Shown here piece after piece: positions 6,158 through 37,440 of a stretch of 59,553 nt of DNA. Origin of the DNA: Clostridia bacterium (lineage in GTDB: Bacteria; Bacillota; Clostridia; Oscillospirales; CAG-272); contig JAFSCG010000106.1 of NCBI GenBank assembly GCA_017436885.1, positions 1-59,553 of the forward strand. Direction: 5' to 3'. The number at the start of each line of letters is the position of its first letter. Position 1 is the first letter of the stretch. Both the position numbers and the translations under genes were made by a program. Under the pieces are notes generated by a model. That model was not told the DNA's origin. It saw nothing but the letters and a program-made list of their open reading frames with translations, and ran no database searches.

Positions 6158-6163
6158 TTATAA

Positions 6164-6279
6164 GCCTTCCCCGGTGGGGGAAGGTGTCAGGCGATAGCCT
6201 GACGGATGAGGCGCTTCTTGACAATGACTCCTCATCCGTCACGCCCTTGGGCGTGCCACCTTCTCCCGCAGGAGAAGGC
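6164..6279. repeat. five-hairpin intergenic palindromic element (family A, copy 2)
   Basis: GCCTTCCCC-ggtg-GGGGAAGG, GTCAGGC-gata-GCCTGAC, GGATGAGG-loop-CCTCATCC, CACGCC-cttg-GGCGTG, CCTTCTCC-cgca-GGAGAAGG. It lies immediately after the alaS stop. Confidence 0.8.
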
Positions 6280-6312
6280 TTGATTTGTAATATCATTTTC
6301 ACAGAGGTCAAT

Positions 6313-14424: not shown

Positions 14425-14426
14425 CA

Positions 14427-14730
14427 TTGAAAATCGCCGTATACTTCAGAGAATTGCCCCAAAGCACCTCGACGTACGTAAGTACGCCTTCGGTTGGCTT
14501 GAGGGAGCAATTTCTTCGTCTACGACGATTTTTAGCTTGGTTAATATCGAAAATCGTCGTATACTTCAGAGAAAAATCCAAAAGCAGCTCGACGTATGAA
14601 GATACGCCTTCTCTTGGCTTTATGGATTTTTTCTTCGTCTACGACGATTTTTAGCGTTTCGATTTCGAAATTGCGTATATTTCAAACAATCTTCAATCGT
14701 AGGGGAGGGGTCTCCCCTCCCGCAAATATC
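14427..14730. repeat. two 120-bp tandem long-hairpin units plus a partial third (family B), ending in the GGGAGGGGTCTCCCCTCCCGCAA hairpin
   Basis: The units at 14429-14533 and 14549-14652 both start AAAATCG(C/T)CGTATACTTCAGAGAA and end TTCTTCGTCTACGACGATTTTT, with a CGACGTA..TACGCC apex. The same design occurs at 37117-37221. Confidence 0.8.
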
Positions 14731-20850: not shown

Positions 20851-22308
20851 TCAAAGATTCTTTACAAGCTCTTTGAAGTGTCTGCCGCGTACCTCGAAAT
20901 TGGGAAAAGCATCGAAGCTTGCGCAGGCAGGGGAGAGGATAACGCGGTCTCCCGCCACGGCTATTTTGCTTGCGGCGCGTACCGCATCGTCAAATAGGGG
21001 TTCCTTTATTATTATAAGACCGCTTTCTGCGGTAAGGGGGCATTCCTCCAGCGCCTTGCCTATCTTGGGACCCGCCTCTCCCGTCAGCACCACGGCCTTT
21101 GCCTTCCTGCACAGGTTTTCCGCAAGAGGCGCAAAGGGAATGTTTTTGTCCGAGCCGCCGCAGATAAGTATGCTGTTACTGTCCTTGAAGGTGGAAAGGG
21201 CGGCGGCGGTGCGTGTGGGGCTGGAATCTATGGAGCTGTTGTAATAACGCACTCCGTCCTTTTCGCGCACCAGCTCAAGGCGGTGCTCCACACCGCCGAA
21301 GGTGGGAGCAACGGCTTTCATTGCCTTGCTTACCGTTTGCATATCAAAGCCGCAGGCGATCACAGCGCCGCAGGCGGCCATGTAATTTTCGCGGTTGTGC
21401 TTGCCGGGGAGCAGGATGTCCGCCTCGTTTATAATGGAAACGGGCTCGTTATCTTCGCATTGAGCGTAGATAACGCCGTCTTCAAGCCAAAGCCTGCAGT
21501 CGCCGCCCGCGGGCCGCTTTTCGGAGGAAAAGAGCGTTACGCGTTTTGGGGTGCAAGAGCCTTTGCTCGCGCTCGCCGTTGCCGCGGCAAGCTCGGCACA
21601 GATGGCGTTTTCCGCATTTGTGATAAGTGCCTTGCATTCCTTGTGGCGGAATATATTGGTCTTTGCCGCAACGTATTCGTCCATGTCGGTATGCCAGTTC
21701 AGATGGTTTGGCGAAAGATTGGTAACCACCGCAACGTCCACGCTTCTCTCGGCGCATTGCAGCTGGAAGCTGGAAAGCTCGCAGACCGCAACGTCGTTTT
21801 CCCCAAGCTCACGGGTGAGAGGGATAAGCGGAATTCCGATGTTGCCGCCCACAAGTGCCTTGCGTCCGTTGCCCGAGGTCTTCATCGCCTCGTTTAACAG
21901 CAGTCCCGTCAGGGTCGTGGTGGTGGTCTTTCCGTCGCTTCCCGTAATGCCTACCGTGGCGCAGGGGCATATCTCCAAAAACAGTTCCGCCTCGCTTGTA
22001 AGCGTTGCGCCGCGCTTTACCCCCTCGGCGAAGGCGGGAATATCGGGGCGCAGACCCGGCGCGCGGAATATTACGTCCTCGTCAAGGTCGCAAAGATATT
22101 TTTCGCCGCAGAGAAGGGAAGCGCCCCTTCCCTCAAGCTCCGCAATTTTTGGGGAAAGCTTTTCCTTTTCCTTGGAATCCCGCAGCGTCAGCGTGCCGCC
22201 TATATCAAGGAGATATTCCGCCAGCGGCACGTTGGAAACTCCCATGCCGACCACAGCGGTCCTTTTTCTTCCCACGGCATCAAGCAATGCCATACCCTTT
22301 TCCGTCAC
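20851..22308 (-). CDS. murD: UDP-N-acetylmuramoyl-L-alanine--D-glutamate ligase
   Basis: The ATP-binding loop GITGSDGKTTTTTL, and Mur-ligase middle and C-terminal domains colinear with MurD. GTG start at 22308 after GGAGG. Confidence 0.9.
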   Translation of the reverse strand: MTEKGMALLDAVGRKRTAVVGMGVSNVPLAEYLLDIGGTLTLRDSKEKEKLSPKIAELEGRGASLLCGEKYLCDLDEDVIFRAPGLRPDIPAFAEGVKRGATLTSEAELFLEICPCATVGITGSDGKTTTTTLTGLLLNEAMKTSGNGRKALVGGNIGIPLIPLTRELGENDVAVCELSSFQLQCAERSVDVAVVTNLSPNHLNWHTDMDEYVAAKTNIFRHKECKALITNAENAICAELAAATASASKGSCTPKRVTLFSSEKRPAGGDCRLWLEDGVIYAQCEDNEPVSIINEADILLPGKHNRENYMAACGAVIACGFDMQTVSKAMKAVAPTFGGVEHRLELVREKDGVRYYNSSIDSSPTRTAAALSTFKDSNSILICGGSDKNIPFAPLAENLCRKAKAVVLTGEAGPKIGKALEECPLTAESGLIIIKEPLFDDAVRAASKIAVAGDRVILSPACASFDAFPNFEVRGRHFKELVKNL

Positions 22309-22460
22309 GTCTGCCTCCGTAATTGTAATGGTATTATATTATTATACTATTATAATCCCGTCACCGCAATAGCGTAGCTGTAAAATTCTCAAAAAAGTAA
22401 CATTTTGGGCGGTGCGTTCTGCTTTCGCGTATTTGCTTCAAATATTTTGCGTGTGGTTTG

Positions 22461-22489
22461 TTGACATTTGTTATCATATATGATAACAT
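22461..22489 (+). promoter_or_regulatory. promoter (TTGACA-17 nt-TAACAT with TG extension) overlapped by a perfect 20-bp palindromic operator
   Basis: TTGACA at 22461-22466. TGTTATCATATATGATAACA at 22469-22488 is its own reverse complement. It lies 21 nt upstream of the HTH-kinase ATG. Confidence 0.65.
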
Positions 22490-22509
22490 AGGCTCGGGGT
22501 GGTGATAAT

Positions 22510-23940
22510 ATGGTCAGTAATGAAATAGCAGAGCAGAGAAGTGATATTATAGCAAAGCTTGTTGCGGCAAGGCTTGAAAAAGGCATTACCCAAGCGGAGC
22601 TCGCCAATATGATAGGAACACAGCGCTCCAATATTTGCAGGCTTGAAAGCGGTGCGCAAAATCCCACTGTGGATATGCTTTTGAAAATATCTGCGGCACT
22701 GGGAAAAAGGTTGGAGCTTGAGTTGAGCGATAAGGAGGAAACGGTGGTGCAGACCTACGTTTTAAAGCTGTATGATACGGAGCTTTTAAGGTTTTCCCTT
22801 TCGGAGCGTGGCTTGGAGGGCTTGAAGGCCGAGCTGATATCTGTGAACAAAGATCTGCAGCCTCTTTTCCCATACGGGCTTGAACTCACGGGAGAAGGGG
22901 TGATCTCCTGGCTGAAAAGCCGTGTCGTTCCCAAAAACAGACGCTTTGTGGCGGAGATACTTGCGTCCTTTGGGTTGAATGCAAATGATACGAAGGGAAT
23001 TATAGACGTTTGCATGGGTCTTTCTCTTAACGATAGCTATTGGGTGGTAGAGGAGGATTTTAAAGGCAGCTTTGCAGATTACAATCTTTACGAAAACAGG
23101 TTTTCGGAGATACTGTCGCTTGTTGCTTATACGGGGGTTGAGCAAAGCCACGGCGGGTTTACCACCTCTCCGGAGCTTACCACGGGAGGAGCGCTGCCAA
23201 AGGCTTGGCGTTTTATAGATGGTGATGGCATATATCTTTATAAGGGCGGCAACGATATTCTCACACACGGGGGAAACGAGCCGTACAGCGAATATTATGC
23301 TTCACAGATCGCTTCGCAAATGGGACTTAATGCAGTTTGCTACGATCTTGAGAATTGGAAGGGTATTCTTGCCTCAAAATGCAAGCTTTTTTGCAGTATC
23401 GACGTTTCATACGTGCCTGTGTGGAGAGTGATACCCGACGTTACCATAAAGAAAGCTTTAGATCTTTATGACAGCCTTGGTGCGGATTTCGGCGAGCAGC
23501 TTCGCAGTATGCTTGCCTTTGATGCTCTTATATATAACGAGGATAGGCATTTCGGCAATTTCGGTCTGTTGCGTGATAACAAAACAGGAAGGTTTATTGC
23601 GCCTGCGCCCATGTTTGACCACGGTCATTCGCTTTTCAGTCAGGCGGCACCCGAAAAATTCGAGGATCTTGAAGCTTATTCAAAAACGTTAACAACTCCG
23701 TACGAAGGGCTGACCTTTGACAAAATAGCTGTGGAGGTCATTGGAAAATCACAGATCTCACAGCTTCGTAAAATGGCAAATTTCACTTTCAAGCGTCATG
23801 CCTCGCTTAATTTGGACGAAGGAAGATTGCAAAAGATAGAGGCGTTTATAAGGCGCAGGGCGGTTCAGCTTCTTGCCTTGGCAAAAAGCCATACACACGA
23901 AAAGAGATCGCTCCGTAAAGATCAAGACGCGGATGTGTGA
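22510..23940 (+). CDS. XRE-type HTH domain fused to a HipA-family Ser/Thr kinase (YjjJ/HipH-like)
   Basis: The N-terminus ITQAELANMIGTQRSNICRLESGAQNPTVDMLLKISAALG is HTH_3-like. HipA-like blocks are TTGGALPKAW (cf. SLAGAQxK), NEPYSEYYASQIA, FDALIYNEDRHFGNFGLL (catalytic loop) and APAPMFDHGHSL. Confidence 0.8.
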   Translation: MVSNEIAEQRSDIIAKLVAARLEKGITQAELANMIGTQRSNICRLESGAQNPTVDMLLKISAALGKRLELELSDKEETVVQTYVLKLYDTELLRFSLSERGLEGLKAELISVNKDLQPLFPYGLELTGEGVISWLKSRVVPKNRRFVAEILASFGLNANDTKGIIDVCMGLSLNDSYWVVEEDFKGSFADYNLYENRFSEILSLVAYTGVEQSHGGFTTSPELTTGGALPKAWRFIDGDGIYLYKGGNDILTHGGNEPYSEYYASQIASQMGLNAVCYDLENWKGILASKCKLFCSIDVSYVPVWRVIPDVTIKKALDLYDSLGADFGEQLRSMLAFDALIYNEDRHFGNFGLLRDNKTGRFIAPAPMFDHGHSLFSQAAPEKFEDLEAYSKTLTTPYEGLTFDKIAVEVIGKSQISQLRKMANFTFKRHASLNLDEGRLQKIEAFIRRRAVQLLALAKSHTHEKRSLRKDQDADV

Positions 23941-24012
23941 GATTCGTGGATATCACTTCCGCCATCAACTGTGCAGATTGCGGATGCTTTTGAACCGCAA
24001 AGAAGGATGTTT

Positions 24013-24513
24013 ATGAAAATTAAATTGTGCAGATACGGTAATTACTGCAATAAAAAATTGCTGTTGGGAACGGCTATTTATTGCGCGATAATATTGCTTC
24101 TTTTCCAGGATATCATTGCGGCTATAACGGGCATCTGTATTTTCCTTGCTTTTGCTCCGCTTGCCTATCCAAAGTCCTTTATCATGGACTACGAAATGAT
24201 AAAATACACCCGCATCCATCATTTGAACAACAGGTTCGGTCGCGGTAGCATTATAGTCAAGGTCAAATACGAGGTGTCGCATATATCGAAGATAGAATTG
24301 TTGCAAAATCCAATGGAAAAGCTTTTGGGGCTGGGACATTTAAGGTTTGTTGGTTATACATACCACGAGGCGAAAAAACACATGGACAGAATCGAGCCCG
24401 TGGTCGCTCATTGCCTTTACGGTGTGGTCATGAAAAAGCACAGGTCGGTAATTGAGGATTTTATAAAGAGCGTAAATGCTGGCGGAGAGAAGAATTATAG
24501 CAGCGAATATTGA
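24013..24513 (+). CDS. membrane protein with bacterial PH (bPH_2/YdbT-like) domain
   Basis: ORF trimmed to the ATG at 24013, after AGAAGGA. It has two N-terminal TM helices, then a beta-rich segment with LQNPMEKLLGLGHLRF, similar to the bPH_2 signature. The gene is AT-rich. Confidence 0.55.
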   Translation: MKIKLCRYGNYCNKKLLLGTAIYCAIILLLFQDIIAAITGICIFLAFAPLAYPKSFIMDYEMIKYTRIHHLNNRFGRGSIIVKVKYEVSHISKIELLQNPMEKLLGLGHLRFVGYTYHEAKKHMDRIEPVVAHCLYGVVMKKHRSVIEDFIKSVNAGGEKNYSSEY

Positions 24514-24546
24514 TATTGGCAAGCGCCGATGCGTATAATTGTAACA

Positions 24547-24756
24547 AAAGGGTCGTTAAAGCTAACGGCCCTTTTATTTTGGAGCGTGTATGGCGTTTTT
24601 CGATATGGTTTTATAGGCGTGGGCTTGGCGGCGGACGCCTTTGCCGCCGCGGTGGTGCGCGGACTGCGCATCGGCAGGCTGAGGGCCGCATGCCTTGCCT
24701 CCACGGCACTCACCTTTGCATTCTTTCAGGGGGCTATGACCCTTGCGGCAAAGTAA
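24547..24756 (+). pseudogene. truncated, frameshifted duplicate of the mntP 5' end (direct-repeat copy 1)
   Basis: 24581-24748 matches 31492-31660 except for one missing G (between 24612 and 24613, versus G31524) and G24692 versus A31604. From the ATG at 24590 the frame reads MAFFDMVL-stop. Homology ends at 24748. Confidence 0.85.
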
Positions 24757-24758
24757 TG

Positions 24759-25595
24759 CTATCGGAAATCCCTTGGGGAGATTCCGGTCCGCTTTTTAAA
24801 TTCGCGGGAAAAATGGCAGGGCTCTGTGTAGCCGCAAAGGTTGGCGACCTCGGAAACGCTCATGTGTCCCGATACCAGCAGATGCTTGGCATATTCAATT
24901 CTCTTTCGGATCACGTATTCCTTCGGGGATATGCCGAATTTGTTGTTGAATATCTTTCGCAAATACACCTCGCTCACGCCGCAGAGCTTTGCCAGATGCT
25001 CTATCGTTACGTCGCAGCTCATAAAATCACGTTCGATCGCTTCCAGTGCCGGGGCGATCATTTTTTGTTGGCCGCTTGGCATGTATTTCTTTTCGGTCTC
25101 CTTTTGCAGGTGATAGATAGCGTCGTAAGCTGCACGCATGGTCGCGGCAAAGCACGCAGGGGAACGGGACGACCATTCGACGCACGCTGTTTTGAAGCTT
25201 TTTTTAAGCTCGTCCGCATCTCGCAACGAAACGACGAAGGGTTCGCAGTCTATATCGGCGTCAAAGTTTATGGCGTAGCAATGACCGCCTTTTATTACTT
25301 TGATTTGGTAAGTGGAGTTTTTTGGGAGATAAAAAAGGCATTCGCCCTCCGTGCGCATAACACGCCCGTCGGAAAAGCAATAATCCTTTATTCCGTCTCC
25401 TGCCTCCATTACAAGCCCGTGAAAGGGACGGTCCTTGTGGAACATTTTGCCACAGTTCGGCGGGACGCAAAGGGCAAAATGTATTTTTGATATCAGCGTG
25501 TTTTCCCAGTCTTTTTTCATAGCGGATAAATCGGAACAATAGATCCGTTGCTCCTTTCGAAAAACTCTTGTTTTTTGAATAATCTGCTTAATCAC
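24759..25595 (-). CDS. AraC-family transcriptional regulator (cupin-like sensor domain plus 2 HTH_AraC motifs)
   Basis: The C-terminus IEHLAKLCGVSEVYLRKIFNNKFGISPKEYVIRKRIEYAKHLL...EVANLCGYTEPCHFSREFKKRTGISPRDF is the canonical AraC HTH pair. Confidence 0.88.
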   Translation of the reverse strand: MIKQIIQKTRVFRKEQRIYCSDLSAMKKDWENTLISKIHFALCVPPNCGKMFHKDRPFHGLVMEAGDGIKDYCFSDGRVMRTEGECLFYLPKNSTYQIKVIKGGHCYAINFDADIDCEPFVVSLRDADELKKSFKTACVEWSSRSPACFAATMRAAYDAIYHLQKETEKKYMPSGQQKMIAPALEAIERDFMSCDVTIEHLAKLCGVSEVYLRKIFNNKFGISPKEYVIRKRIEYAKHLLVSGHMSVSEVANLCGYTEPCHFSREFKKRTGISPRDFR

Positions 25596-25706
25596 GGCAA
25601 TTTTACGGGAATATTATAGCATTTTATTTCGAATACATCAAGTACTTTCGGTAATATCATTTTCAAAGATCATTTGCTGTGTATAATGAAAACAGAGGTG
25701 ATCGTT

Positions 25707-27920
25707 ATGGAATACATCAAGGCTGCGGATTACGAATACGTAATAAATAAATATCACGATACGAAAAAGCCGTTTAACAGCTTTTTCAGATTCATCCGAA
25801 GAGACGATATCTTCTCTTCGGAAACGGGTATGGACGGTGATGAGATAAAAGCGCAACTATTGCGGCTCGATGCGGAGCGTGAGGGTGTTTCGCATTCGGT
25901 GAGAAAGGCCATGGGATTTGCCTTCGTTTTGGAAAACACGAGGATCTCCTGCGATAGCCGCGATAGGTTTCCCGCAATCAACGCCATAGATCGCCCCTTG
26001 GAGCAAGTCATGATCGCGCGTTGGCGGCGCGAGGTATTTGAAGAGCTGGTTCCCGACGCGGAAGCGAAAAGAAAGGCCTTGGGAAGCTCGGGCGCGGCGA
26101 ATATTTCTCCGGATTTCGACCACAGCGTTCCCGTGTGGGACAGGATACTTTCCCTCGGGTTCGCGGGGCTGCTTCGGGAGAGCGAGGAGGCGCGAGCGCG
26201 TTGTGAATGCACGCCCGAGCAGGAGGCCTTCTTTGATGGCGTGAAGATAACGTACGAGGCGATAGTAAGCTTTATCGGCAGGCTTGCCGCTTTGGCAGAG
26301 GCAACCGAGGGCTCTCAGCGTATGGCAGAGGCGTTAAAGCATATAGCTTACAATGCGCCGTCAACCTTTTACGAGGCCTTGCTTGTCAACTACGTTTATT
26401 TCATGCTCAGCGAACATATTGAGGGTCTGCAGGTACGTTCACTTTCCAATTTTGACAGGCATTTCAGGCATTTTTATGAGCGGGATATTGCGAACGGCAT
26501 CACCGAGGAAGAGATACGGACCGATCTTGCGTATTTCCTCCTTCAATTCACCGCTATAGGGAACTATTGGAACCAACCCGTATATCTCGGTGGTGAAAGA
26601 GCAGACGGTACAACGGAGATAAATCCTCTGTCGTATATTTTCCTCGACGTGTATGACAAAATGGGGATATACAACCCCAAAATACAGATAAAGGTGGCGG
26701 ACAGCACGCCAAAAAGCTTTCTTTGCCGTGCTCTTGACATGATACGTCGGGGAAACAGCAGTATCGTGTTCGTTTCCGATGCCACCATTCGTAAAGCGCT
26801 GATAAAAAATGCGGGAGCAACGGAGGAAGAAGCAAGGCTTTGCCACGTTAAGGGCTGTTACGAATACGGTATAGAGGGCGTATATTCGGGCGGCATGAAT
26901 TATCTTAACCTCCTCAAGCCCTTGGAATATGTCTTGCACGAGGGGCGCGACGGTATAACGGGTGCATTTGTCGGTGTGAAATGCCCTGCCGCAAAGGATT
27001 ACGATTCCTTTGAACAGCTTTACGACGAATACAAAAAACAGCTTTTGTACGTTATTGACACTACTATCGAAACCGTAAACGGTTTTGAGGAGTATCTCAG
27101 CTATATCAACCCGCAGTCGATGCTGTCCGCAACGTATCCCGACTGCCTGAAAAACGGGCGCGATGCCCTTGTAAACGGGGAAAGTAATCTTAGCGTGGGT
27201 TTTGTTGCATCTCTTGCAGATTCCCTTGCGATGATAAAGAAGTACGTTTTTGATCTGAAGCTTATCTCGCTTCCCGAGCTGGTCCGTATGCTCGATGCGG
27301 ATTTTGAGGGTAACGATGCGTTCCGACGCAGACTTCTTGCCGATCGGGATAAATACGGCAACAACAAGCCGCTCCCCGATGGAATAGCGGTTGATATCGT
27401 AGATTTTGTTGCCAAGCACGTAACGGGAAGGCCGAATGCAAGTGCACGCGGCCGCAAATGGAGCTGCGGATTCCACGTTGCGCGTATGTCCTACTCCCAA
27501 GGAACAAAAACTGCCGCTACACCGGACGGGCGACGTTTTGGAGAGGAGCTGTCCAAAAACTGCTCTGCGGTCATGGGGCAGAATCGCGAGGGTGCAACGG
27601 CTGCCATACTGTCCGCAACCAGGATAGACGCCTCCTCCTTCGCGGGTGATGCTTGTCTTGATATCGGATTGCTTCCCTCGACCGTAAGCGGCGAGGACGG
27701 CTTGCAGGCGATGTACGGCCTGCTGCGTACCTTCTGCCGCCGCGGAGGGCACGCTCTTCAGATCAACGTATTTAATTCCGATATGCTCCGCGATGCCCAA
27801 GCGCATCCCGATAAGTATCGCGATCTGCAGATCAGGGTATGCGGCTGGAACGTGCTTTGGAACAACATAAACAAAAAGGAACAGGACGGCTTTATCCGTC
27901 AGGCGGAGGCACTTGCTTGA
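25707..27920 (+). CDS. glycyl radical enzyme, compact (737 aa), PFL2/dehydratase-like, substrate unknown
   Basis: ATG at 25707 after AGAGGTGA. The C-terminal glycyl motif is QIRVCGWNV (Gly codon 27843-27845). The Cys loop is HVKGCYEYG (Cys codon 26856-26858, Glu two residues later). HALQINVFNSDMLRDAQAHPDKYRDL is typical of the GRE C-terminal domain. Confidence 0.85.
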   Translation: MEYIKAADYEYVINKYHDTKKPFNSFFRFIRRDDIFSSETGMDGDEIKAQLLRLDAEREGVSHSVRKAMGFAFVLENTRISCDSRDRFPAINAIDRPLEQVMIARWRREVFEELVPDAEAKRKALGSSGAANISPDFDHSVPVWDRILSLGFAGLLRESEEARARCECTPEQEAFFDGVKITYEAIVSFIGRLAALAEATEGSQRMAEALKHIAYNAPSTFYEALLVNYVYFMLSEHIEGLQVRSLSNFDRHFRHFYERDIANGITEEEIRTDLAYFLLQFTAIGNYWNQPVYLGGERADGTTEINPLSYIFLDVYDKMGIYNPKIQIKVADSTPKSFLCRALDMIRRGNSSIVFVSDATIRKALIKNAGATEEEARLCHVKGCYEYGIEGVYSGGMNYLNLLKPLEYVLHEGRDGITGAFVGVKCPAAKDYDSFEQLYDEYKKQLLYVIDTTIETVNGFEEYLSYINPQSMLSATYPDCLKNGRDALVNGESNLSVGFVASLADSLAMIKKYVFDLKLISLPELVRMLDADFEGNDAFRRRLLADRDKYGNNKPLPDGIAVDIVDFVAKHVTGRPNASARGRKWSCGFHVARMSYSQGTKTAATPDGRRFGEELSKNCSAVMGQNREGATAAILSATRIDASSFAGDACLDIGLLPSTVSGEDGLQAMYGLLRTFCRRGGHALQINVFNSDMLRDAQAHPDKYRDLQIRVCGWNVLWNNINKKEQDGFIRQAEALA

Positions 27921-27921
27921 T

Positions 27922-28860
27922 ATGCGTGGGGAAAAGGTGTTTTCAAATCGAATTTCAAGCCTTTTGTTGGCTCTGGCCGTCTGTGCTCTGTGGGGGTCTC
28001 TTTACCCATTCGTGAAGCTTGGATATGACGCCTTTAGCATAGACGGCGGAGACGTTCCGTCAATCATACTGTTTGCTGGCGTGCGCTTCGCTGTGTGCGG
28101 TGTTGCCATGGCGGTGTTGTTTTCGGCGGTGAAGGGAAGGCTCCTTGCACCAAAAAGGGAAGACGCGGCACCTGTTTTTACTGTTGCGCTGTTCTCCGTG
28201 ATCCTTCACTATCTTCTTACTTATATCGCGCTGGCGGTGGGCGAGGGCTCCAAAAGCGCAATAATCAAGCAGATCGGATTTCTCTTTTTGAGCTGTATGT
28301 CCTTTCTGTTTATAAAAAACGAGCGGTTTTCTTATAAAAAGCTTTTCTGCGGATGCTTGGGTTTTTCCGGCATAGTCGTTACAAGCATGGATGGCTCCGC
28401 GTTTTCCTTTGCCCTTGGGGACCTATTGCTGGTGCTTTCGTCCTTTTGTGCGGTCATAGGAACAGTAGCGACAAAAAAAGCGGTCAAGCGTACGGAGCCC
28501 TTGGTCCTCGTGGCTTATTCACAGCTTTTCGGAGGCGTTTTGCTTTTGCTCGCGGGGCTTGCCTTTGGCGGGAGGATTGCGCACGTCGACCTTGGCTCCG
28601 CTGTTGTTTTTGCATATATTTGCGTGGCTTCCATCTGTGCGTACGCTCTTTGGAACGTGCTGATAAAATACAATTCCGTTTCCAAGCTTTCAATGATAAA
28701 GTTTACGGAGCCGTTGTTTGCGGTCCTGTTTTCGGGGCTGTTGCTCCGCGAAAACATTTTGAAGTGGAATTATGCGGCGGCTATGATAATTATTTTTACG
28801 GTGATACTTTTGGATAACGGCTTTATACGCAAGCGTCGGGGAAAAGGTGGCTTTAAATGA
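27922..28860 (+). CDS. DMT-superfamily (EamA-type) transporter
   Basis: About 10 TM helices in two EamA-like halves. The ATG lies 2 nt after the GRE stop, and the gene's stop overlaps the activase start (ATGA). Confidence 0.8.
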   Translation: MRGEKVFSNRISSLLLALAVCALWGSLYPFVKLGYDAFSIDGGDVPSIILFAGVRFAVCGVAMAVLFSAVKGRLLAPKREDAAPVFTVALFSVILHYLLTYIALAVGEGSKSAIIKQIGFLFLSCMSFLFIKNERFSYKKLFCGCLGFSGIVVTSMDGSAFSFALGDLLLVLSSFCAVIGTVATKKAVKRTEPLVLVAYSQLFGGVLLLLAGLAFGGRIAHVDLGSAVVFAYICVASICAYALWNVLIKYNSVSKLSMIKFTEPLFAVLFSGLLLRENILKWNYAAAMIIIFTVILLDNGFIRKRRGKGGFK

Positions 28861-29747
28861 AAGCAACGATCTTTGAGATAAAGCGATTTGCCGTTCATGA
28901 CGGCGACGGTATTCGTACTACCGTGTTCTTCAAGGGCTGTTCGCTGAAATGCGTATGGTGCCATAATCCCGAGGGACTGGGCGCTTCTCCGCAGTTAGGC
29001 TACTACGAGCATAAATGCACAGGCTGCGGCGAATGTGCGGCCGTTTGCCCCGCGAATGCTCACCGCACAGAGAGCGGGATCCACGTTTTTGATAGGGAAA
29101 AATGTATCGCCTGCGGCAGGTGCGCCGTTGTATGCACCAATGGAGCGTTAAGCTTTTACGGTAAAGAGGTAACGGTGGAAGAGCTGCTTTCCCTGCTTCT
29201 TGAGGACAGAGAGTTTTACGAGGAGTCCGATGGCGGTGTTACGCTTTCGGGCGGAGAGTGCCTTATGCAGGCGGATTTTTGCGCAGAGCTGCTGAAACGC
29301 CTGAAGGAGCACGGTATCCACACCGCTGTTGATACCTGCGGCTTCGTTTCAAGGGAGACACTGGATCGGGTCATTCCGTTTACCGACGTGTTTTTATACG
29401 ACATAAAGGCCTATGACGAGGAAGTGCATAAAAAATGTACCGGTGTTTCCAATCGCAGGATCCTTGATAATCTTGCGTATCTTGATTCCGTCGGAAAATC
29501 TGTTGAGATACGTATTCCTTACGTTCCCGATCACAATGATGCGGAAATGAGGGACATTGCCCGTTTTGTTTCGACCCTTAAGAACGTTACGAAAATAAGG
29601 GTCCTTCCGTACCATGCATACGCCGGATCGAAATATCGTGCTTTGGATATGGAAAACACCCTTCCCGAAAGGCTTCCTTCTTCAACGGAGTTGGACGAGG
29701 CTAAGGCTATTATCCGCAAGCTCACGAGCATTCGAGTTCAGGACTGA
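28857..29747 (+). CDS. glycyl-radical enzyme activating protein (radical SAM with ferredoxin-like insert)
   Basis: CSLKCVWCHNPE provides the CX3CX2C motif. CTGCGECAAVCP and CIACGRCAVVC provide two auxiliary 4Fe-4S motifs. GGVTLSGGE is also present. Confidence 0.9.
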   Translation: MKATIFEIKRFAVHDGDGIRTTVFFKGCSLKCVWCHNPEGLGASPQLGYYEHKCTGCGECAAVCPANAHRTESGIHVFDREKCIACGRCAVVCTNGALSFYGKEVTVEELLSLLLEDREFYEESDGGVTLSGGECLMQADFCAELLKRLKEHGIHTAVDTCGFVSRETLDRVIPFTDVFLYDIKAYDEEVHKKCTGVSNRRILDNLAYLDSVGKSVEIRIPYVPDHNDAEMRDIARFVSTLKNVTKIRVLPYHAYAGSKYRALDMENTLPERLPSSTELDEAKAIIRKLTSIRVQD

Positions 29748-29816
29748 GGTATACTTACGGTTTTTTTGTGCTTACACAAGCTCAATAAAATAAAAAACAA
29801 AAAACAGGAGGAAAAA

Positions 29817-31343
29817 ATGAAAAAATTCACATTGTTCACGGCAATACTTTTGTGTTTGGCAATGCTTTTACCCGCCTGCGGCACACCGGCAACTCCCCCA
29901 TCGGAAACGGATGGCAGTTCTGCTGACGTTACCACCGAAGCCCCCGTTGTAACGGAATCCCCATATGATGAAAACGGTTTTTTGAAGGACGATCTTCCGG
30001 ACGAGCTTGATTTCAACGACCTTACGGTCAAGATTTTCATTGCGGATTATAACAAGGCGTACGCCGAGGATATGTATAGCGAGGGCTATAATACCGAGCG
30101 CCTTAACGATGCGATCTACGCTATGATCGTAAACGTAGAGGATCGCCTTAACGTTGATCTTGAATATACCATAGAGTCCTACGTTTGGGCCGATTACGAT
30201 AAGTTCCAAGGCAGCGTTAAAACACGCATCATGGCAAACGACGGATCTATGGATCTTATATTCAATAATCATAATGCCGCATACGATATGCTTGAGTACG
30301 AATACTACGTTGACCTTTCCGAAACCAAGTACATAAACGAGGACATGCCCTGGTATAACCAGAGCATTAAGGACAGTCTGCTTACCGATTACGTTCACTT
30401 CCTTGCAGGTGACTTTGCCCTTGCGAACGTAAAAAACACTTACGCAGTTTATTTTAACGCTGATATGTACAAGTCGCTGGGATATACCGAAAATATTTAC
30501 GACGTGGTTGACAGCGGCAAATGGACCATCGACAAGATGGAGGAGCTGATAAAGACTTGCTACTCCGATCTTAACGGAAACGATAAGGCAGATCCCGCAG
30601 ACCGCTTCGGTCTTACCTTCGGAGATACCAATAAGTATCTCGGATTCCTTCCCGCCTTTGACGTAAAGATATTTACAAGGACCAACGACGGCTACGATTT
30701 TACCTATGGAAACGAGCACGCACTTGACGTGGCAAACAGGCTTATTGCCCTTGTGAACACCAATGAGAATGTGCTTAAGGGTCAGGCAAACGGCAAGGAA
30801 GCCGACTTCCCGGATTGGATGATATCCTCCGGAGGCGGTAACAACGCAAGCAGAGTGTTCATTGAGGGACGCTCGCTGTTCTCCTGCGGACTTGTTGCAG
30901 ATGCACCCGCCATTATCAACGCCATAAATTTCGAGTACGGCCTTCTTCCTTATCCCAAGTGGAACGAGGAGCAGGAAAATTACCAAACGACCCTCCAGCG
31001 CAGCTGTAACGCTATGATCCCCGTTTGCTCCACCATAGAGGACGAGGCATCTGCCGTTCTTGAAGCATTGGCAAGCGAATCCCACAGAAATCTGATGCCC
31101 GAGTACTGCGAGGTCTCTCTCAAGACCCGTTATTCTCAGGATAGCGACGTAAGCCGAATGTTCGACCTTATCGCTCACAGCACGGTATACGATCCGGGTG
31201 AAATATACAACAACGGTACGCCCGGCGGATACATACGTTACGCCATTAACGTAAGGCTGGATTGGATGAGCCACATAGCCGCAAACCGAGATGCTCTTGT
31301 TAACAAGATGCAGGAAGTAGTTGATTTCTACAAGAATAAGTGA
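29817..31343 (+). CDS. large extracellular solute-binding lipoprotein (ABC SBP family 1-like), with no adjacent permease genes
   Basis: ATG at 29817 after AGGAGG. MKKFTLFTAILLCLAMLLPACG gives a signal peptide plus lipobox, followed by a TPATPPSETDGSSADVTTEAPVVTESP linker and about 460 aa resembling an SBP. Confidence 0.65.
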   Translation: MKKFTLFTAILLCLAMLLPACGTPATPPSETDGSSADVTTEAPVVTESPYDENGFLKDDLPDELDFNDLTVKIFIADYNKAYAEDMYSEGYNTERLNDAIYAMIVNVEDRLNVDLEYTIESYVWADYDKFQGSVKTRIMANDGSMDLIFNNHNAAYDMLEYEYYVDLSETKYINEDMPWYNQSIKDSLLTDYVHFLAGDFALANVKNTYAVYFNADMYKSLGYTENIYDVVDSGKWTIDKMEELIKTCYSDLNGNDKADPADRFGLTFGDTNKYLGFLPAFDVKIFTRTNDGYDFTYGNEHALDVANRLIALVNTNENVLKGQANGKEADFPDWMISSGGGNNASRVFIEGRSLFSCGLVADAPAIINAINFEYGLLPYPKWNEEQENYQTTLQRSCNAMIPVCSTIEDEASAVLEALASESHRNLMPEYCEVSLKTRYSQDSDVSRMFDLIAHSTVYDPGEIYNNGTPGGYIRYAINVRLDWMSHIAANRDALVNKMQEVVDFYKNK

Positions 31344-31449
31344 GTTGGTGTAAGTCGCGTCGGCGGTACTGCGCTGTCATACCGACGGACAAACGAGAGT
31401 ATATTATACAGTGCTTAAAAATGCACGTCAGATAACTTATAAATAACGC

Positions 31450-31660
31450 AAAAAGGTCGTTGAAGCTTACTTCTGCGGCCTTTTGCTTTTTGGAGCGTGT
31501 ATGGCGTTTTTCGATATGGTTTTGATAGGCGTGGGCTTGGCGGCGGACGCCTTTGCCGCCGCGGTGGTGCGCGGACTGCGCATCGGCAGGCTGAGGGCCG
31601 CATACCTTGCCTCCACGGCACTCACCTTTGCATTCTTTCAGGGGGCTATGACCCTTGCGG
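31450..31660. repeat. direct-repeat copy 2 (mntP upstream hairpin plus the first 160 nt of intact mntP)
   Basis: See 24547-24756. The coding part is near-identical and the upstream ~40 nt are more diverged. Confidence 0.85.
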
Positions 31661-32025
31661 GATATTATGCGGGGGAGCTTTTAGCCTCGGGACTTGAAAA
31701 ATGGTCGGGCATACTTGGGGCAATACTGCTGTTTTTTCTCGGCGGAAGGATGCTGTTTGCCGCCGAGGAGGAAGAGCCTTCTCTGCATCTTATATCTATG
31801 GGATTTGCCACAAGCGTGGATGCCTCCGTAGTTGGTATGGCGTTCTCCCTTCGCCCGTCGGTAAGTGTTTTTCACCTTTGTGCCGTTATCGCCGCAGTAA
31901 CTCTCGTCTTATCTCTTTTGGGCTTTGCTTTGGGTTGCGCCTTTGGCGGCCGCTTCCGCAAAACTGCAAGAATAGGCGGTGCATTGGTGCTTATTGCTAT
32001 GGGTGCACGGTTTTTGATCGGGTAA
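31501..32025 (+). CDS. mntP: manganese efflux pump MntP
   Basis: ORF trimmed to the ATG at 31501 (MAFFDMVLIGVGLAADAFAAAVVRG), after GGAG. It has the two DUF204 half-repeats with (D/S)xDAF/SVDA motifs and FLGGRML, as in MntP. Confidence 0.8.
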   Translation: MAFFDMVLIGVGLAADAFAAAVVRGLRIGRLRAAYLASTALTFAFFQGAMTLAGYYAGELLASGLEKWSGILGAILLFFLGGRMLFAAEEEEPSLHLISMGFATSVDASVVGMAFSLRPSVSVFHLCAVIAAVTLVLSLLGFALGCAFGGRFRKTARIGGALVLIAMGARFLIG

Positions 32026-32100
32026 TTTCTGTTACGTATTGCTTTTTTCGATAATTTGCGATAAAATAATTATATCTATATCCAAAAAAGTGGGTGCCTT

Positions 32101-33504
32101 ATGAATTTCTCCGATCTTTTGTTCCTGTACGCATTCCTGCCCCTGTGCCTCGGAGCGTATTTTATATCAAAAAATATCCGCTGGCGCAACGGTGTGTTGC
32201 TGGTATTCTCCCTTATTTTCTACGCTTGGGGCGATATCCGCTTCCTGCCGCTGTTGGTTTGCGTTGCGCTGGTAAATTACTGCGCCGCACTTCTCCTTCG
32301 CCGCTTCGGGGAGGGGAAGCGCTCCACAGCCGTCCTTGCCGTGGGCATAGTGTTTGATCTGGGGCTTCTCGGCGTATTTAAATACACGGGCTTCCTTTTC
32401 GAGAATATCAACGGGCTTTTCGGCACGTCCCTCGAGGCTCCCGAGCTGGGACTGCCCCTGGGCATCAGCTTCTATACCTTCCGTCTTATCTCCTATCTTC
32501 TTGACGTTCATTGGGAGAAGACCGAGCCCGAGCGCAATTTCGGACGCTTCCTTATGTACGTTTCTCTGTTCCCGTCAACCGTGGCGGGCCCCATCGTGCG
32601 CTACGCGGACGTGCGCGAAAGTCTTACAGAGCGCACCGCCACCCTGCACGACGTTGGCGAGGGTGCATCCCGCATTATCTGCGGACTTGCAAAAAAGGTA
32701 ATCATCGCGGATAGCCTTGCAAAGCTTACCGCCTCTCTTTTCGGCACCGACGTTGCCGCCGCATCCGTTGCCGCCTGCTGGATAGGCGCGGCAGTATACG
32801 CCCTGCAGATGTATTTCGATTTTTCCGGTTACAGCGACATGGCGGTGGGTCTTGCCCGTATGTTCGGCATTCCGTACCCCGAGAACTTCAATTATCCCTT
32901 CCTTTGCAAGACCATTGCGGAGTTCTGGCAGCGTTGGCACATGACTCTCGGCTCATTCTTCCGCGATTATCTGCTGTACGTTCCCATATTCGGCAGTCAG
33001 CGCAAGTATCTTGCCCTGTTCCTCGTTTGGTTTTCCACGGGTATCTGGCACGGTGCCGCATGGAACTACGTTATCTGGGGTCTGTTTTTCGGCGCGTTCA
33101 TCCTGCTTGAAACTCTCCTCGGCAAAAAGCGCATGAAAAAGATCCCCGTGCCCGTAAAGCATATCTACACCAAGCTTGTACTTATCATCGGCTTCGGCAT
33201 CTTCCGCTTTGAAAAAACGGACGAGCTTTTCGCCTTCCTCCGCGGTCTTGTGGGCGCAAACGGCGCACCCTTCTGGGAGGAAACGGTGCTCCACTCCCTT
33301 GCAAACAACTGCTTCCTGCTTGCGGCGGCGTTGCTGTTCTCCTTCCCCGTTATCCGCTTTATTAAGGAAAAGGCAGAAAATAGCCCCATCGGCGTTATTG
33401 CCTACGGCGGCGCAAGACTCGTTTTCTCCGTGCTCATTCTGCTTATCGTCAGCATCATGCTTGTCAATTCCACCGCAAATCCCTTCCTTTACGCCAACTT
33501 CTGA
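32101..33504 (+). CDS. MBOAT-family membrane O-acyltransferase (DltB/AlgI-like) with C-terminal FLYANF tail
   Basis: 467 aa and polytopic. FWQRWHMTLGSFFRDYLY contains the conserved MBOAT His region. The last residues are VNSTANPFLYANF-stop. Confidence 0.88.
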   Translation: MNFSDLLFLYAFLPLCLGAYFISKNIRWRNGVLLVFSLIFYAWGDIRFLPLLVCVALVNYCAALLLRRFGEGKRSTAVLAVGIVFDLGLLGVFKYTGFLFENINGLFGTSLEAPELGLPLGISFYTFRLISYLLDVHWEKTEPERNFGRFLMYVSLFPSTVAGPIVRYADVRESLTERTATLHDVGEGASRIICGLAKKVIIADSLAKLTASLFGTDVAAASVAACWIGAAVYALQMYFDFSGYSDMAVGLARMFGIPYPENFNYPFLCKTIAEFWQRWHMTLGSFFRDYLLYVPIFGSQRKYLALFLVWFSTGIWHGAAWNYVIWGLFFGAFILLETLLGKKRMKKIPVPVKHIYTKLVLIIGFGIFRFEKTDELFAFLRGLVGANGAPFWEETVLHSLANNCFLLAAALLFSFPVIRFIKEKAENSPIGVIAYGGARLVFSVLILLIVSIMLVNSTANPFLYANF

Positions 33505-37107: not shown

Positions 37108-37440
37108 CCGCGCTGTAAAAAATCGCTTTATACTTCAGATACTGCAACAGGGCCGAATTCGGCGTACGCCAAGTACGCCGTCATCCGGCCCTATTTTGTA
37201 TCTTCGTCAAAGCGATTTTTTGTATGTCGGGGTGGTTAGTTGAGTGAGGCGGGCGACGCACGCTAAGTACGCCTTCGGTTTGCTTTTGAGCTTTTTTCTT
37301 CGTCTAAAGCGATTTTTTGTTTGTCGAGGTGGTTAGTTGAGTGAAGCGGGCGGCGTACGCCAAGTACTCCTTCGGTTTGTAGCCTTCCTCTCCGAGGAAG
37401 GGGGACCGCGAAGCGGTGGAAGGAGTTTTTTCGGTTAATG
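37108..37440. repeat. hairpin-repeat array: one family-B long hairpin (37117-37221), two ~95-bp tandem units, and a partial family-A element (37381-37432)
   Basis: AAAAATCGCTTTATACTTCAGATA...TCTTCGTCAAAGCGATTTTTT. The unit TGTCG(G/A)GGTGGTTAGTTGAGTGA(G/A)GCGGGCG..ACGC.AAGTAC.CCTTCGGTTTG occurs twice. CCTTCCTC-tccg-AGGAAGG and GACCGC-gaa-GCGGT are also present. Confidence 0.8.

Follow-up and report, generated by a model that had tools for sequence, protein, structure and literature searches.

Why does a chromosomal segment from an uncultured Clostridia lineage carry the start of one gene, mntP, twice, once on each side of a five-gene cassette? The window, which is the whole stretch of 59,553 nt analysed here, contains a left repeat at 24577-24748 (172 nt, plus strand), comprising the RBS and mntP nucleotides 1-159 (1-160 in the register of the intact gene). 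The right repeat at 31488-31660 (173 nt, plus strand) comprises the RBS and nucleotides 1-160 and lies within the intact gene. The two are colinear and in direct orientation, and our alignment agrees with an earlier note on this DNA that they differ only by one G, missing after 24612 (equivalent to G31524), and one transition (G24692 versus A31604). The right edge given there, 24748/31660, is exact, while near-identity on the left begins 4 nt further out than had been described, at 24577/31488. Upstream of this point, 24545-24576 and 31449-31487 are homologous and, as also noted, far more diverged. Both contain a hairpin and a T-run, with fold energies of -18.6 and -21.8 kcal/mol, respectively, and are separated by a 7-nt indel and several substitutions. 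In a comparison of the window with itself, which had been proposed as a check, the 172/173-nt pair stands out as the longest and most identical repeat, present in two copies only.

The two copies differ in what they encode. Translation of 24590-24616 gives MAFFDMVL followed by a stop codon, and the right copy continues into an intact mntP of 174 aa (31501-32025, plus strand), both as predicted. The right-copy protein matches the Pfam family Mntp (PF02659) with 95.6 bits against a cutoff of 24.4, over residues 32-172 and thus the full-length domain. Its manganese specificity is presumed only, because the score for the NCBIfam equivalog (50) lies below the cutoff of 214.

The window is a MAG contig, and short-read assembly graphs do branch at the mntP repeat. 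The arrangement might accordingly be a metagenomic misassembly, in which strains of two different gene contents (types I and II, described below) were stitched together at a common mntP k-mer. This is extremely improbable. The junction at 24748/24749, where the left repeat ends, is unique and occurs in neither type I nor type II, and within a genome, the left copy is set apart from the right one by private mutations. The same left junction is found in three assemblies from at least two projects (L004 and L019 from ENA, and L022, NCBI GCA_045538915.1), among them a strain with 98.1-98.4% identity to the window. Since these three assemblies share the junction and L019 has both copies on one scaffold, we conclude that the arrangement is not an assembly artefact.

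The conserved left flank of the locus is murD (20851-22308, minus strand; NCBIfam TIGR01087, 311.8 bits, cutoff 211.95), a possible homologous anchor. Its actual neighbour is a gene of 476 aa with HTH_3 and HipA_C-like domains (22510-23940, plus strand; Pfam and PADLOC), which had been overlooked in the earlier description of the gene neighbours and is absent in the relatives L020, L030 and L031. The next gene encodes a predicted membrane protein of 166 aa (24013-24513, plus strand) that adjoins mntP in the empty-site haplotype; its former assignment as a PH-domain protein does not hold, the bPH_2 match being insignificant (E = 0.15). The GC content of 22406-24576 is 0.449, compared with 0.527 for the window. 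On the right, the conserved flank present in all haplotypes is an MBOAT/DltB-like gene (32101-33504, plus strand).

Between the repeats, domain searches identify the gene set that had been proposed from the letters. An AraC-family regulator of 253 aa (24759-25520, minus strand; Pfam HTH_18 and HTH_AraC) forms the left end of the cassette; its called start is the ATG at 25520, and the exact protein is present on L004 and L005. A glycyl radical enzyme (GRE) of 737 aa (25707-27920, plus strand) has PFL-like and Gly_radical domains, an RVCGW glycine loop and a GCYE cysteine loop. It scores below every equivalog cutoff (HypD, 282 versus 1100), and its closest PDB entry is 6vxc (E = 7e-70). An EamA/DMT transporter of 312 aa, recognized by domain matches (27922-28860, plus strand), is followed by a radical SAM GRE activase (28857-29747, plus strand) with a CX3CX2C motif and 342 bits for TIGR02494 (cutoff 174). 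With the domains, both loops and an activase score above cutoff in place, the GRE and the adjoining activase qualify as an enzyme/activase pair. The last gene (29817-31343, plus strand) encodes a 508-aa lipoprotein with the lipobox LLPAC. It has no direct match in Pfam or the PDB, but homologues with 29-54% identity carry SBP_bac_1/SBP_bac_8 domains, which makes it a distant extracellular solute-binding protein (SBP); no ABC partner genes lie nearby, and its description as an orphan SBP is acceptable.

An accessory block flanked by direct repeats could be a site-specific mobile element, an integrase-type island or transposon targeting mntP, with the repeat as att site or target duplication. 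Islands that duplicate att sites at tRNAs or gene 3' ends likewise place direct repeats of a host gene around an accessory block and have empty sites in relatives. This explanation is effectively refuted. Pfam and NCBIfam searches of the five cassette genes found no integrase, transposase or relaxase, in line with the earlier reading, and these genes leave no coding space unused. There are no inverted repeats at its ends, a tRNA scan of the window found none, and blastn of 24500-31700 against plasmids and phages gave no match. In contrast to the 15-60 nt core of an integrase island, the repeat consists of 172 coding nucleotides from a gene 5' end, with different kinds of boundary at its two sides. 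Moreover, L030 appears to have the cassette in this slot with no repeats around it.

Comparison with relatives shows that the murD-mntP interval is a variable slot in this lineage, with at least four states. Colinearity with the window extends in every haplotype through murD to 22405 and resumes rightwards from the mntP RBS; L020, L030 and L031 align up to 22405-22510. The left boundary of the slot is at 22391-22405 (AAAAAAGTAACATTT), directly after which L030 departs from the window. In type I (L020), murD is followed by the 166-aa gene, a leader that we call type A, a single intact mntP and the MBOAT gene. Type IV (L031-L033) has the same layout minus 1.9 kb, deleted between 9-nt repeats (GGTTTGTTG). 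Both types are empty sites of the kind that the earlier note had suggested looking for, with a single intact mntP beside the 166-aa gene. The cassette is accessory, because these relatives lack it in spite of 91-96% identical flanks.

Type II comprises murD, 36 nt, the AraC-GRE-DMT-activase-SBP cassette, a type-B leader and mntP, with no mntP fragment. It is a reconstruction from two short contigs of different samples and of lineages other than that of the window. In one (L030, a JGI contig), the AraC end of the cassette (96% nucleotide identity) lies directly beside murD, with no 166-aa gene, type-A leader or mntP fragment. In the other (L021), the truncated activase gene, the 508-aa gene and the type-B leader abut a single mntP. 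With one end of the cassette adjoining murD and the other a single mntP, the cassette appears to occupy the slot without duplication. A single contig spanning murD, cassette and mntP without the fragment was not found. Exact-pattern scans of metagenome contigs gave 0 matches, in a collection that evidently lacks the sample of L030, so that the result has no bearing on rarity. Type III, represented by the window and conspecific strains, contains both slot contents in tandem.

The mntP leaders follow the same division. The type-A leader (24510-24580, plus strand) is near-identical to those of L020 and L031. It has a promoter-like TTGATA-18-TATAAT at 24510-24539, followed by a 13-bp hairpin (24546-24575) and a T-run. 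The type-B hairpin and T-run (31449-31487, plus strand) is homologous to it, diverged, and near-identical to the L021 leader. Each type is conserved across lineages, the two are about 30% diverged from one another, and identity switches between them at the RBS. An Rfam scan of the window at gathering thresholds gave no match, and no yybP-ykoY riboswitch precedes either copy of mntP. L031 (type A) and L021 (type B) are 97% identical to each other over mntP-MBOAT, so the two haplotypes can coexist with one mntP allele, which is a precondition of the splice proposed below.

The left repeat ends 10 nt away from the stop codon of the AraC gene, at a junction that appears to be illegitimate (24748/24749, between GACCCTTGCGG and CAAAGTAATGC). 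L030 carries the murD intergenic region, 36 unique nucleotides and then the AraC flank, and matches the window again from 24744 onward. The overlap of the junction with the type-II flank (TGATCCTGTGG) is an exact GG (2 nt), or 9/12 with one gap (TGACCCTTGCGG versus TGATCCT-GTGG). Compared with random positions, the anchored score reaches p of about 0.008; the gapped match is only modestly significant, and its score is equalled at 12/512 mntP positions. The window lacks the 36 nt that L030 has between 22405 and the junction, which amounts to a deletion only if type II was the recipient. We also considered these 36 nt as a degraded mntP remnant. They have 14/36 ungapped matches, with the likeness confined to the last 12 nt, and microhomology was preferred.

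Taken together, the window is probably the product of a single illegitimate join between two slot contents, type II and a variant of type I here called type I', most likely made by homology-facilitated illegitimate recombination (HFIR) between conspecific strains. The type-I' content, low in GC, would consist of the HipA-like gene, the 166-aa gene, the type-A leader and the 168 nt that begin at the RBS region of mntP. The type-II content would enter type III from 36 nt inside its start, through one microhomology-associated join at 24748/24749. The repeat, the junction, the four haplotypes and the asymmetric decay of the copies are observed; the sequence of events, the choice of recipient haplotype and the enzymology are inferred from them. 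On this model, recombination took place between the DNA of two conspecific strains with a common mntP allele. One end of the incoming DNA would have paired homologously, in the simplest case on the murD side of a recipient that already had the cassette. The other end, stopping by chance inside mntP, would have been joined illegitimately 36 nt away, with 2.3 kb inserted and 36 nt deleted as the net result. The 'duplication' of the mntP 5' end would then exist because both haplotypes end in mntP. The inserted piece may well be the 2.3-kb block of HipA-like gene, 166-aa gene and truncated mntP, placed beside a resident cassette, rather than the cassette inserted into mntP. An analysis of SNP sharing in the murD flank gave no usable signal for donor versus recipient. 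Both proposed parents are hypothetical, as no type-I' or type-II strain with the window-type mntP allele was found.

HFIR is characterized by one homologous and one illegitimate end, microhomology of 3-10 bp and insertion coupled to deletion (PMC3240628). It has been described in Streptococcus pneumoniae, Acinetobacter baylyi and Pseudomonas stutzeri (Prudhomme 2002; de Vries & Wackernagel 2002; Meier & Wackernagel 2003; all as cited in PMC3240628). Like its products, the window has continuous homology on one flank, a novel junction on the other, at what may be a short microhomology, and no dedicated recombinase; with type II as the recipient, foreign DNA (here 2.3 kb) would also have been inserted together with a small deletion (here 36 nt). 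It differs in being a natural product, inferred from comparative data and not from experiment, and in its exact microhomology of just 2 nt (9/12 gapped). Furthermore, the inserted end carries a piece of a gene that is also present 6.9 kb downstream, which creates the direct repeat. Sequential displacement at T6SS effector-immunity and Rhs loci, which leaves arrays of orphan remnants (PMC5361080), is also similar. There too, a module comes in by way of a conserved anchor gene at one end and an illegitimate join at the distal end, and old content or fragments are stacked and not replaced. Toxin and immunity genes make up those arrays, presumably under selection for immunity; the window instead stacks a GRE cassette of metabolic character and the HipA-like gene with its 166-aa neighbour. 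Their remnants are 3' fragments, whereas that of the window is a 5' fragment.

The earlier note had proposed a Campbell-type integration, in which a non-replicating circle with the cassette (AraC to SBP), the type-B leader and mntP nucleotides 1-168 entered a type-I' chromosome by a single homologous crossover, the reverse of which could loop the cassette out. The product has the topology of such an insertion-duplication with a 5' fragment: a truncated copy upstream and a complete copy downstream, with the insert bracketed by direct repeats of a target-gene segment (172/173 nt, one indel and one substitution). Repeats of 172 nt at 99% identity suffice for RecA-dependent recombination. Empty sites with a single intact mntP exist (L020, L031-L033). 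In E. coli conjugation, recircularised linear DNA produces lacZ duplications of 109-950 bp by a single crossover, more commonly than true HFIR occurs; these direct repeats of the homologous segment likewise bracket the insert, and their length range includes 172 nt (PMC3240628).

Campbell integration would yield the same product, but it is less parsimonious and we consider it unlikely. Closing the circle would still take the same illegitimate join, of mntP nucleotide 168 to the AraC flank, with transfer and crossover as additional steps. Only the 46 nt that separate the slot boundary from the AraC stop could have held the left end of the circle, while HFIR anchored in murD predicts a join at 36 nt from its anchor. 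No counterpart of the cassette was found among plasmids or phages. Unlike a typical insertion-duplication, the window shows no vector or replicon, and the circle would have to be a chromosomal fragment closed illegitimately; the leaders beside the two repeats are also different alleles (A and B). No circle or excision product was seen, the Logan contigs of two samples breaking at the repeat edges (24606 and 24719). The earlier proposal was thus right about the product topology and the empty sites, but the duplication does not appear to be a footprint of the cassette's arrival, as the cassette ends in L030 and L021 show none. Homology-dependent rather than site-specific recombination is the right class of mechanism, and the searches revealed no link to an integrase, transposase, tRNA, plasmid or phage. 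The circular DNA is not required, and the product alone cannot separate a circle from a linear anchor with an illegitimate join.

The later history of the copies bears on the age of the splice. In a comparison of the window with strain S2, six changes fall in the left copy and none in the right (Fisher p = 0.015). They comprise the frameshift, four nonsynonymous and one synonymous change; two are private to the window and four to S2, in which the left copy has an ORF of 55 aa instead of MAFFDMVL. The two repeats were identical to each other in the ancestor of the window and S2. This identity and the asymmetric change that followed point to a recent origin of the duplication. Judged from the sequence, the left fragment is a truncated, decaying mntP pseudogene without function and the right copy is the working gene. 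In no relative is the left copy part of a longer functional gene, an outcome that had been named as one that would speak against the insertion reading. The frameshift is specific to the clade of the window and absent in strain GCA_045538915.1, and is thus a later mutation, not part of the splicing event.

An old ancestral tandem arrangement, its repeats kept alike by gene conversion, would instead have given rise to type I by loop-out and to type II through loss of its left part. L020, with a type-A leader and full mntP, does resemble the expected loop-out product. L019, which differs from the window at three positions over 19,295 nt, has A31604G as one of them, making its right copy equal to the left and compatible with conversion, although bubble-popping between repeats in short-read assembly explains this change equally well. 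The 36 murD-AraC nucleotides of L030 have no counterpart in the window, so type II did not arise from type III by deletion. Each of the left copies, in the window and in S2, has gone its own way, with two and four private changes, respectively, uncorrected from the right copy, and the leaders that border the repeats are still about 30% diverged. We regard an ancestral duplication as improbable.

The intact mntP body, from about nucleotide 85 to just beyond the stop codon, is a highly diverged allele with 62-63% amino acid identity to relatives. In a search of GTDB representative genomes, the best MntP match was only 35% identical, from which we conclude that the lineage of the window is not among them. 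The blastn identities had suggested a conversion of the 5' end of the right copy from an L020-like allele; this was ruled out by a four-way alignment, in which both copies are the window-specific allele from about nucleotide 95 onward. From the RBS to about nucleotide 95, mntP is 97-100% conserved among haplotypes with wholly different neighbours, namely the cassette or the HipA-like/166-aa genes on the left and mntP bodies of 62-85% amino acid identity on the right. This segment could conceivably serve, repeatedly and without a recombinase, as an anchor or docking site for exchanging, stacking and looping out alternative gene blocks, a reading that we consider improbable. If it were true, the 172-nt repeats would make the GRE cassette reversibly excisable at a biologically meaningful frequency.

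From the comparisons made here, the duplicated mntP start looks like an ordinary scar, left where two versions of a variable site were spliced, and not like a new kind of mobile element. Recombination is known to have this outcome, and present understanding of it is unchanged. For annotation, the locus cautions that a direct repeat around a cassette does not prove that the cassette is the inserted piece, and short-read assemblies can break at a repeat of 172 nt. In the window strain, the repeat could yield variants that have lost the cassette and retain a frameshifted mntP; three quarters of the homology lie downstream of the frameshift. The locus offers a clean natural case, in uncultured gut-type Clostridia, of accessory blocks stacked at a chromosomal hot spot without mobile-element machinery, with parental-type arrangements (empty, cassette only, both) all recovered from public data and the junction resolved to the nucleotide.

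The region contains, from left to right, murD (20851-22308, minus strand), an HTH and HipA_C-like gene (22510-23940) that the earlier note had overlooked, a gene for a 166-aa membrane protein (24013-24513), a fragment of mntP and the 6.7-kb cassette. The cassette comprises an AraC regulator (24759-25520, minus strand) with its stop codon 10 nt from the repeat end, a glycyl radical enzyme (GRE) with RVCGW and GCYE loops, an EamA transporter, an activase and a 508-aa lipoprotein, which has more distant homologues with SBP_bac_1/8. It is followed by intact mntP, an MBOAT/DltB-like gene and the gene for a DHHW protein. The GRE scores under every equivalog cutoff, and its nearest solved structure is HypD; the PH domain assigned earlier to the 166-aa protein was not significant. 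GC content is 0.449 in 22406-24576 and 0.489 in the cassette, compared with a window value of 0.527. An origin through a site-specific element is extremely improbable; as previously claimed, gene annotation of the region shows no integrase or transposase, scans of the window returned no tRNA or Rfam match, and the cassette has no plasmid or phage match.

Outside the species, the nearest AraC (62% identity) is found on Ruminococcaceae MAG contigs from JGI, NCBI and ENA (L023-L028), where three different GREs, two activases and two AraC regulators stand in tandem. Stacking of AraC-GRE-activase modules thus seems to occur in genomes elsewhere in Oscillospirales too.

The segments 24577-24748 and 31488-31660 align colinearly, without rearrangement, and differ in two places only: a G is missing after 24612 in the left copy (G31524 in the right copy), and G24692 on the left corresponds to A31604 on the right. 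In a self-comparison of the whole window this is the longest and most identical repeat, with a copy number of exactly two. The left copy translates as MAFFDMVL-stop, while the right copy encodes an intact 174-aa protein with an Mntp domain. The direct duplication of the mntP 5′ end described in the earlier note, and its reading of the two copies, are therefore borne out. The ~32-55 nt 5′ of each copy are homologous as well but far more diverged, with a 7-nt indel and several substitutions, and both versions fold into a hairpin followed by a T-run.

Smaller repeats occur elsewhere on the contig. Tandem pairs of ~95-120-nt intergenic repeats lie at 14426-14684 and 37201-37379, with 78% and 90% identity within the pairs. 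The two sites have a common core, TTCTTCGTC...CGATTTTT, and a hairpin-like motif, GTACGCCTTCGG, which points to a small dispersed repeat family. An inverted repeat of ~110-120 nt (539-647 and 6161-6280; 76% identity) has its arms 5.5 kb apart.

The window is a contig from a MAG that NCBI lists as 'Clostridia bacterium', and its arrangement is supported by three other assemblies. An ENA scaffold that is 100% identical (L004) covers the left junction, and a second one (L019; 99.98%) covers both copies. In strain S2 (NCBI MAG GCA_045538915.1), which is 98.1-98.4% identical, this left junction recurs on contig L022, and L029 holds the right copy. In Logan, the unitigs of two additional runs end exactly k-1 bases inside each repeat end (24606, 24719), the pattern that a repeat with two copies should give. 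The arrangement is genuine, and misassembly has next to no probability as its explanation.

Close relatives of MntP are nearly absent, with a best identity of 35% among GTDB representatives; in a large protein collection a 99% cluster is followed by sequences at 61-62%. Related contigs nevertheless reveal several states of the variable slot between murD and mntP. The single intact mntP at an empty site that the earlier note predicted was found in L020 (type I), which reads murD, 166-aa gene, type-A leader, intact mntP and truncated MBOAT gene, with flanks 91-96% identical to the window and with neither the cassette nor the HipA-like ORF. Three JGI contigs (L031-L033; type IV) share this layout minus 1.9 kb between two 9-nt direct repeats, GGTTTGTTG (22455-22463 and 24344-24352); the deletion takes out the HipA-like gene together with two thirds of the 166-aa gene, leaving the last 57 codons of the latter. 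It is the second rearrangement of this slot to be mediated by microhomology. L030, from JGI sample 3300041581, follows the murD upstream region to window position 22405, continues with 36 nt of unique sequence, and proceeds to CAAAGTAATGC... and an AraC gene 96% identical to that of the window, and lacks the HipA-like gene, the 166-aa gene, the type-A leader and the mntP fragment. L021, from sample ERR11635919, carries a truncated activase gene, the 508-aa gene, a type-B leader, a single mntP and a truncated MBOAT gene. Taken jointly, L030 and L021 appear to define a state in which the cassette alone occupies the slot (type II). The earlier insertion reading is thus supported in part: empty sites exist, but these two contigs suggest that the cassette can occupy the slot without an mntP fragment or duplication.

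The HipA-like gene has features of its own. L020 keeps, at 2380-2500, the promoter and palindromic operator TGTTATCATATATGATAACA found 5′ of this gene, while the ORF is precisely absent. Between the window and S2, the HipA-like gene (within 22510-23962) differs by 0.21%, compared with 4.05% for the adjoining murD and 2.6% for the 166-aa gene, which suggests a recent exchange of the HipA-like gene. Its product gives weak PADLOC matches to the candidate defence family PDC-M03A.

The leaders upstream of mntP fall into two classes. In the window, the left copy has a type-A leader, nearly identical in sequence to those of L020 and L031, and the right copy a type-B leader, nearly identical to that of L021; the two types are ~30% different, and shared sequence begins at the RBS. 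The mntP-MBOAT segments of L031 (type A, without cassette) and L021 (type B, with cassette) are 97% identical, so at least one lineage has both states of the slot on a single mntP background. Both copies in the window carry the window-specific mntP allele, and the parental molecules were thus most probably conspecific.

The two classes (24510-24589 and 31430-31500) are deeply diverged from each other, and each is conserved across lineages. Type A has a near-consensus promoter-like TTGATA-18-TATAAT, then a strong hairpin and T-run and directly the RBS; this combination could be an attenuator; no Rfam family matched the mntP leader. The mntP body (31585-32035), which spans ~nt 85 to a point ~10 nt beyond the stop, shows 50-75% nucleotide and 62-63% amino acid identity between the window and its relatives, and 77-85% amino acid identity among L020, L021 and L031 themselves, whereas the sequence immediately flanking it on both sides is 97-98% identical. 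mntP thus behaves like a sharply bounded allele that is hypervariable or has been replaced repeatedly.

The window's arrangement (type III) can be read as a composite of type-I′ content (22406-24576, with the HipA-like gene, the 166-aa gene and the type-A leader), mntP from its RBS to ORF nt 160, and type-II content from 36 nt inside. The whole structure is explained by one novel junction, 24748|24749. At this point mntP TGACCCTTGCGG meets the type-II flank TGATCCT-GTGG; the exact overlap is GG, and a gapped match covers 9/12 positions (p ~0.008 against random positions, yet 12/512 positions inside mntP are equally good). A linear DNA held at one end by a homologous anchor and joined illegitimately at microhomology at the other would produce such an insertion together with a small deletion. 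These are the hallmarks of homology-facilitated illegitimate recombination (PMC3240628), and we consider this the probable origin of the window's arrangement. In the simplest version, the recipient would be of type II and the incoming DNA would anchor on murD, with a gain of 2.3 kb and a loss of 36 nt; the cassette would already have been resident, and the inserted piece would be the one carrying the mntP fragment. The junction is just 36 nt from the anchor end, as murD anchoring predicts. Campbell-type integration of a circle carrying a type-B leader and mntP 1-168, as earlier proposed, would yield the same product and has experimental precedent, with duplications of 109-950 bp (PMC3240628). 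Closing the circle would still take that same illegitimate join, further steps would be needed, and the circle end would have to fall by chance within a 46-nt interval; we regard it as unlikely. T6SS and Rhs loci, in which old and new contents are stacked with gene remnants, resemble the slot in these respects and have been given the same explanation as we favour here (PMC5361080). The feature would thus be a recombination scar of a known kind rather than a new mechanism, well documented by four natural haplotypes.

The left copy has changed since. In S2 it has no frameshift and forms a 55-aa ORF, with A at the position of 24692, so both differences arose later, in the window's clade; the frameshift was not part of the event. 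The S2 left copy carries four substitutions of its own; three are nonsynonymous, and none is present in the S2 right copy, which is identical to that of the window. Between the two strains 6/172 positions of the left repeat differ, against 0/173 of the right (Fisher p = 0.015). This pattern indicates that the copies were identical in the strains' common ancestor and that the left has since decayed as a pseudogene, which makes the event recent relative to the 4-9% divergence from other lineages. An old duplication maintained by conversion is improbable. L019 differs from the window at 3/19,295 positions, one of which, A31604G (L019 position 10104), makes the right copy equal to the left and changes Tyr35 of MntP to Cys; this may be either gene conversion between the repeats or repeat cross-talk during assembly.

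The mntP fragment (24590-24757) retains a promoter-like site and RBS and faces AraC, a convergent gene (24759-25520, minus strand) whose 3′ end is 10 nt away with no terminator between; read-through would be antisense to the cassette's regulator.

Loop-out of the cassette between the repeats is mechanistically reasonable; the few samples available showed no excision product. Most such crossovers in the window strain would leave mntP frameshifted.
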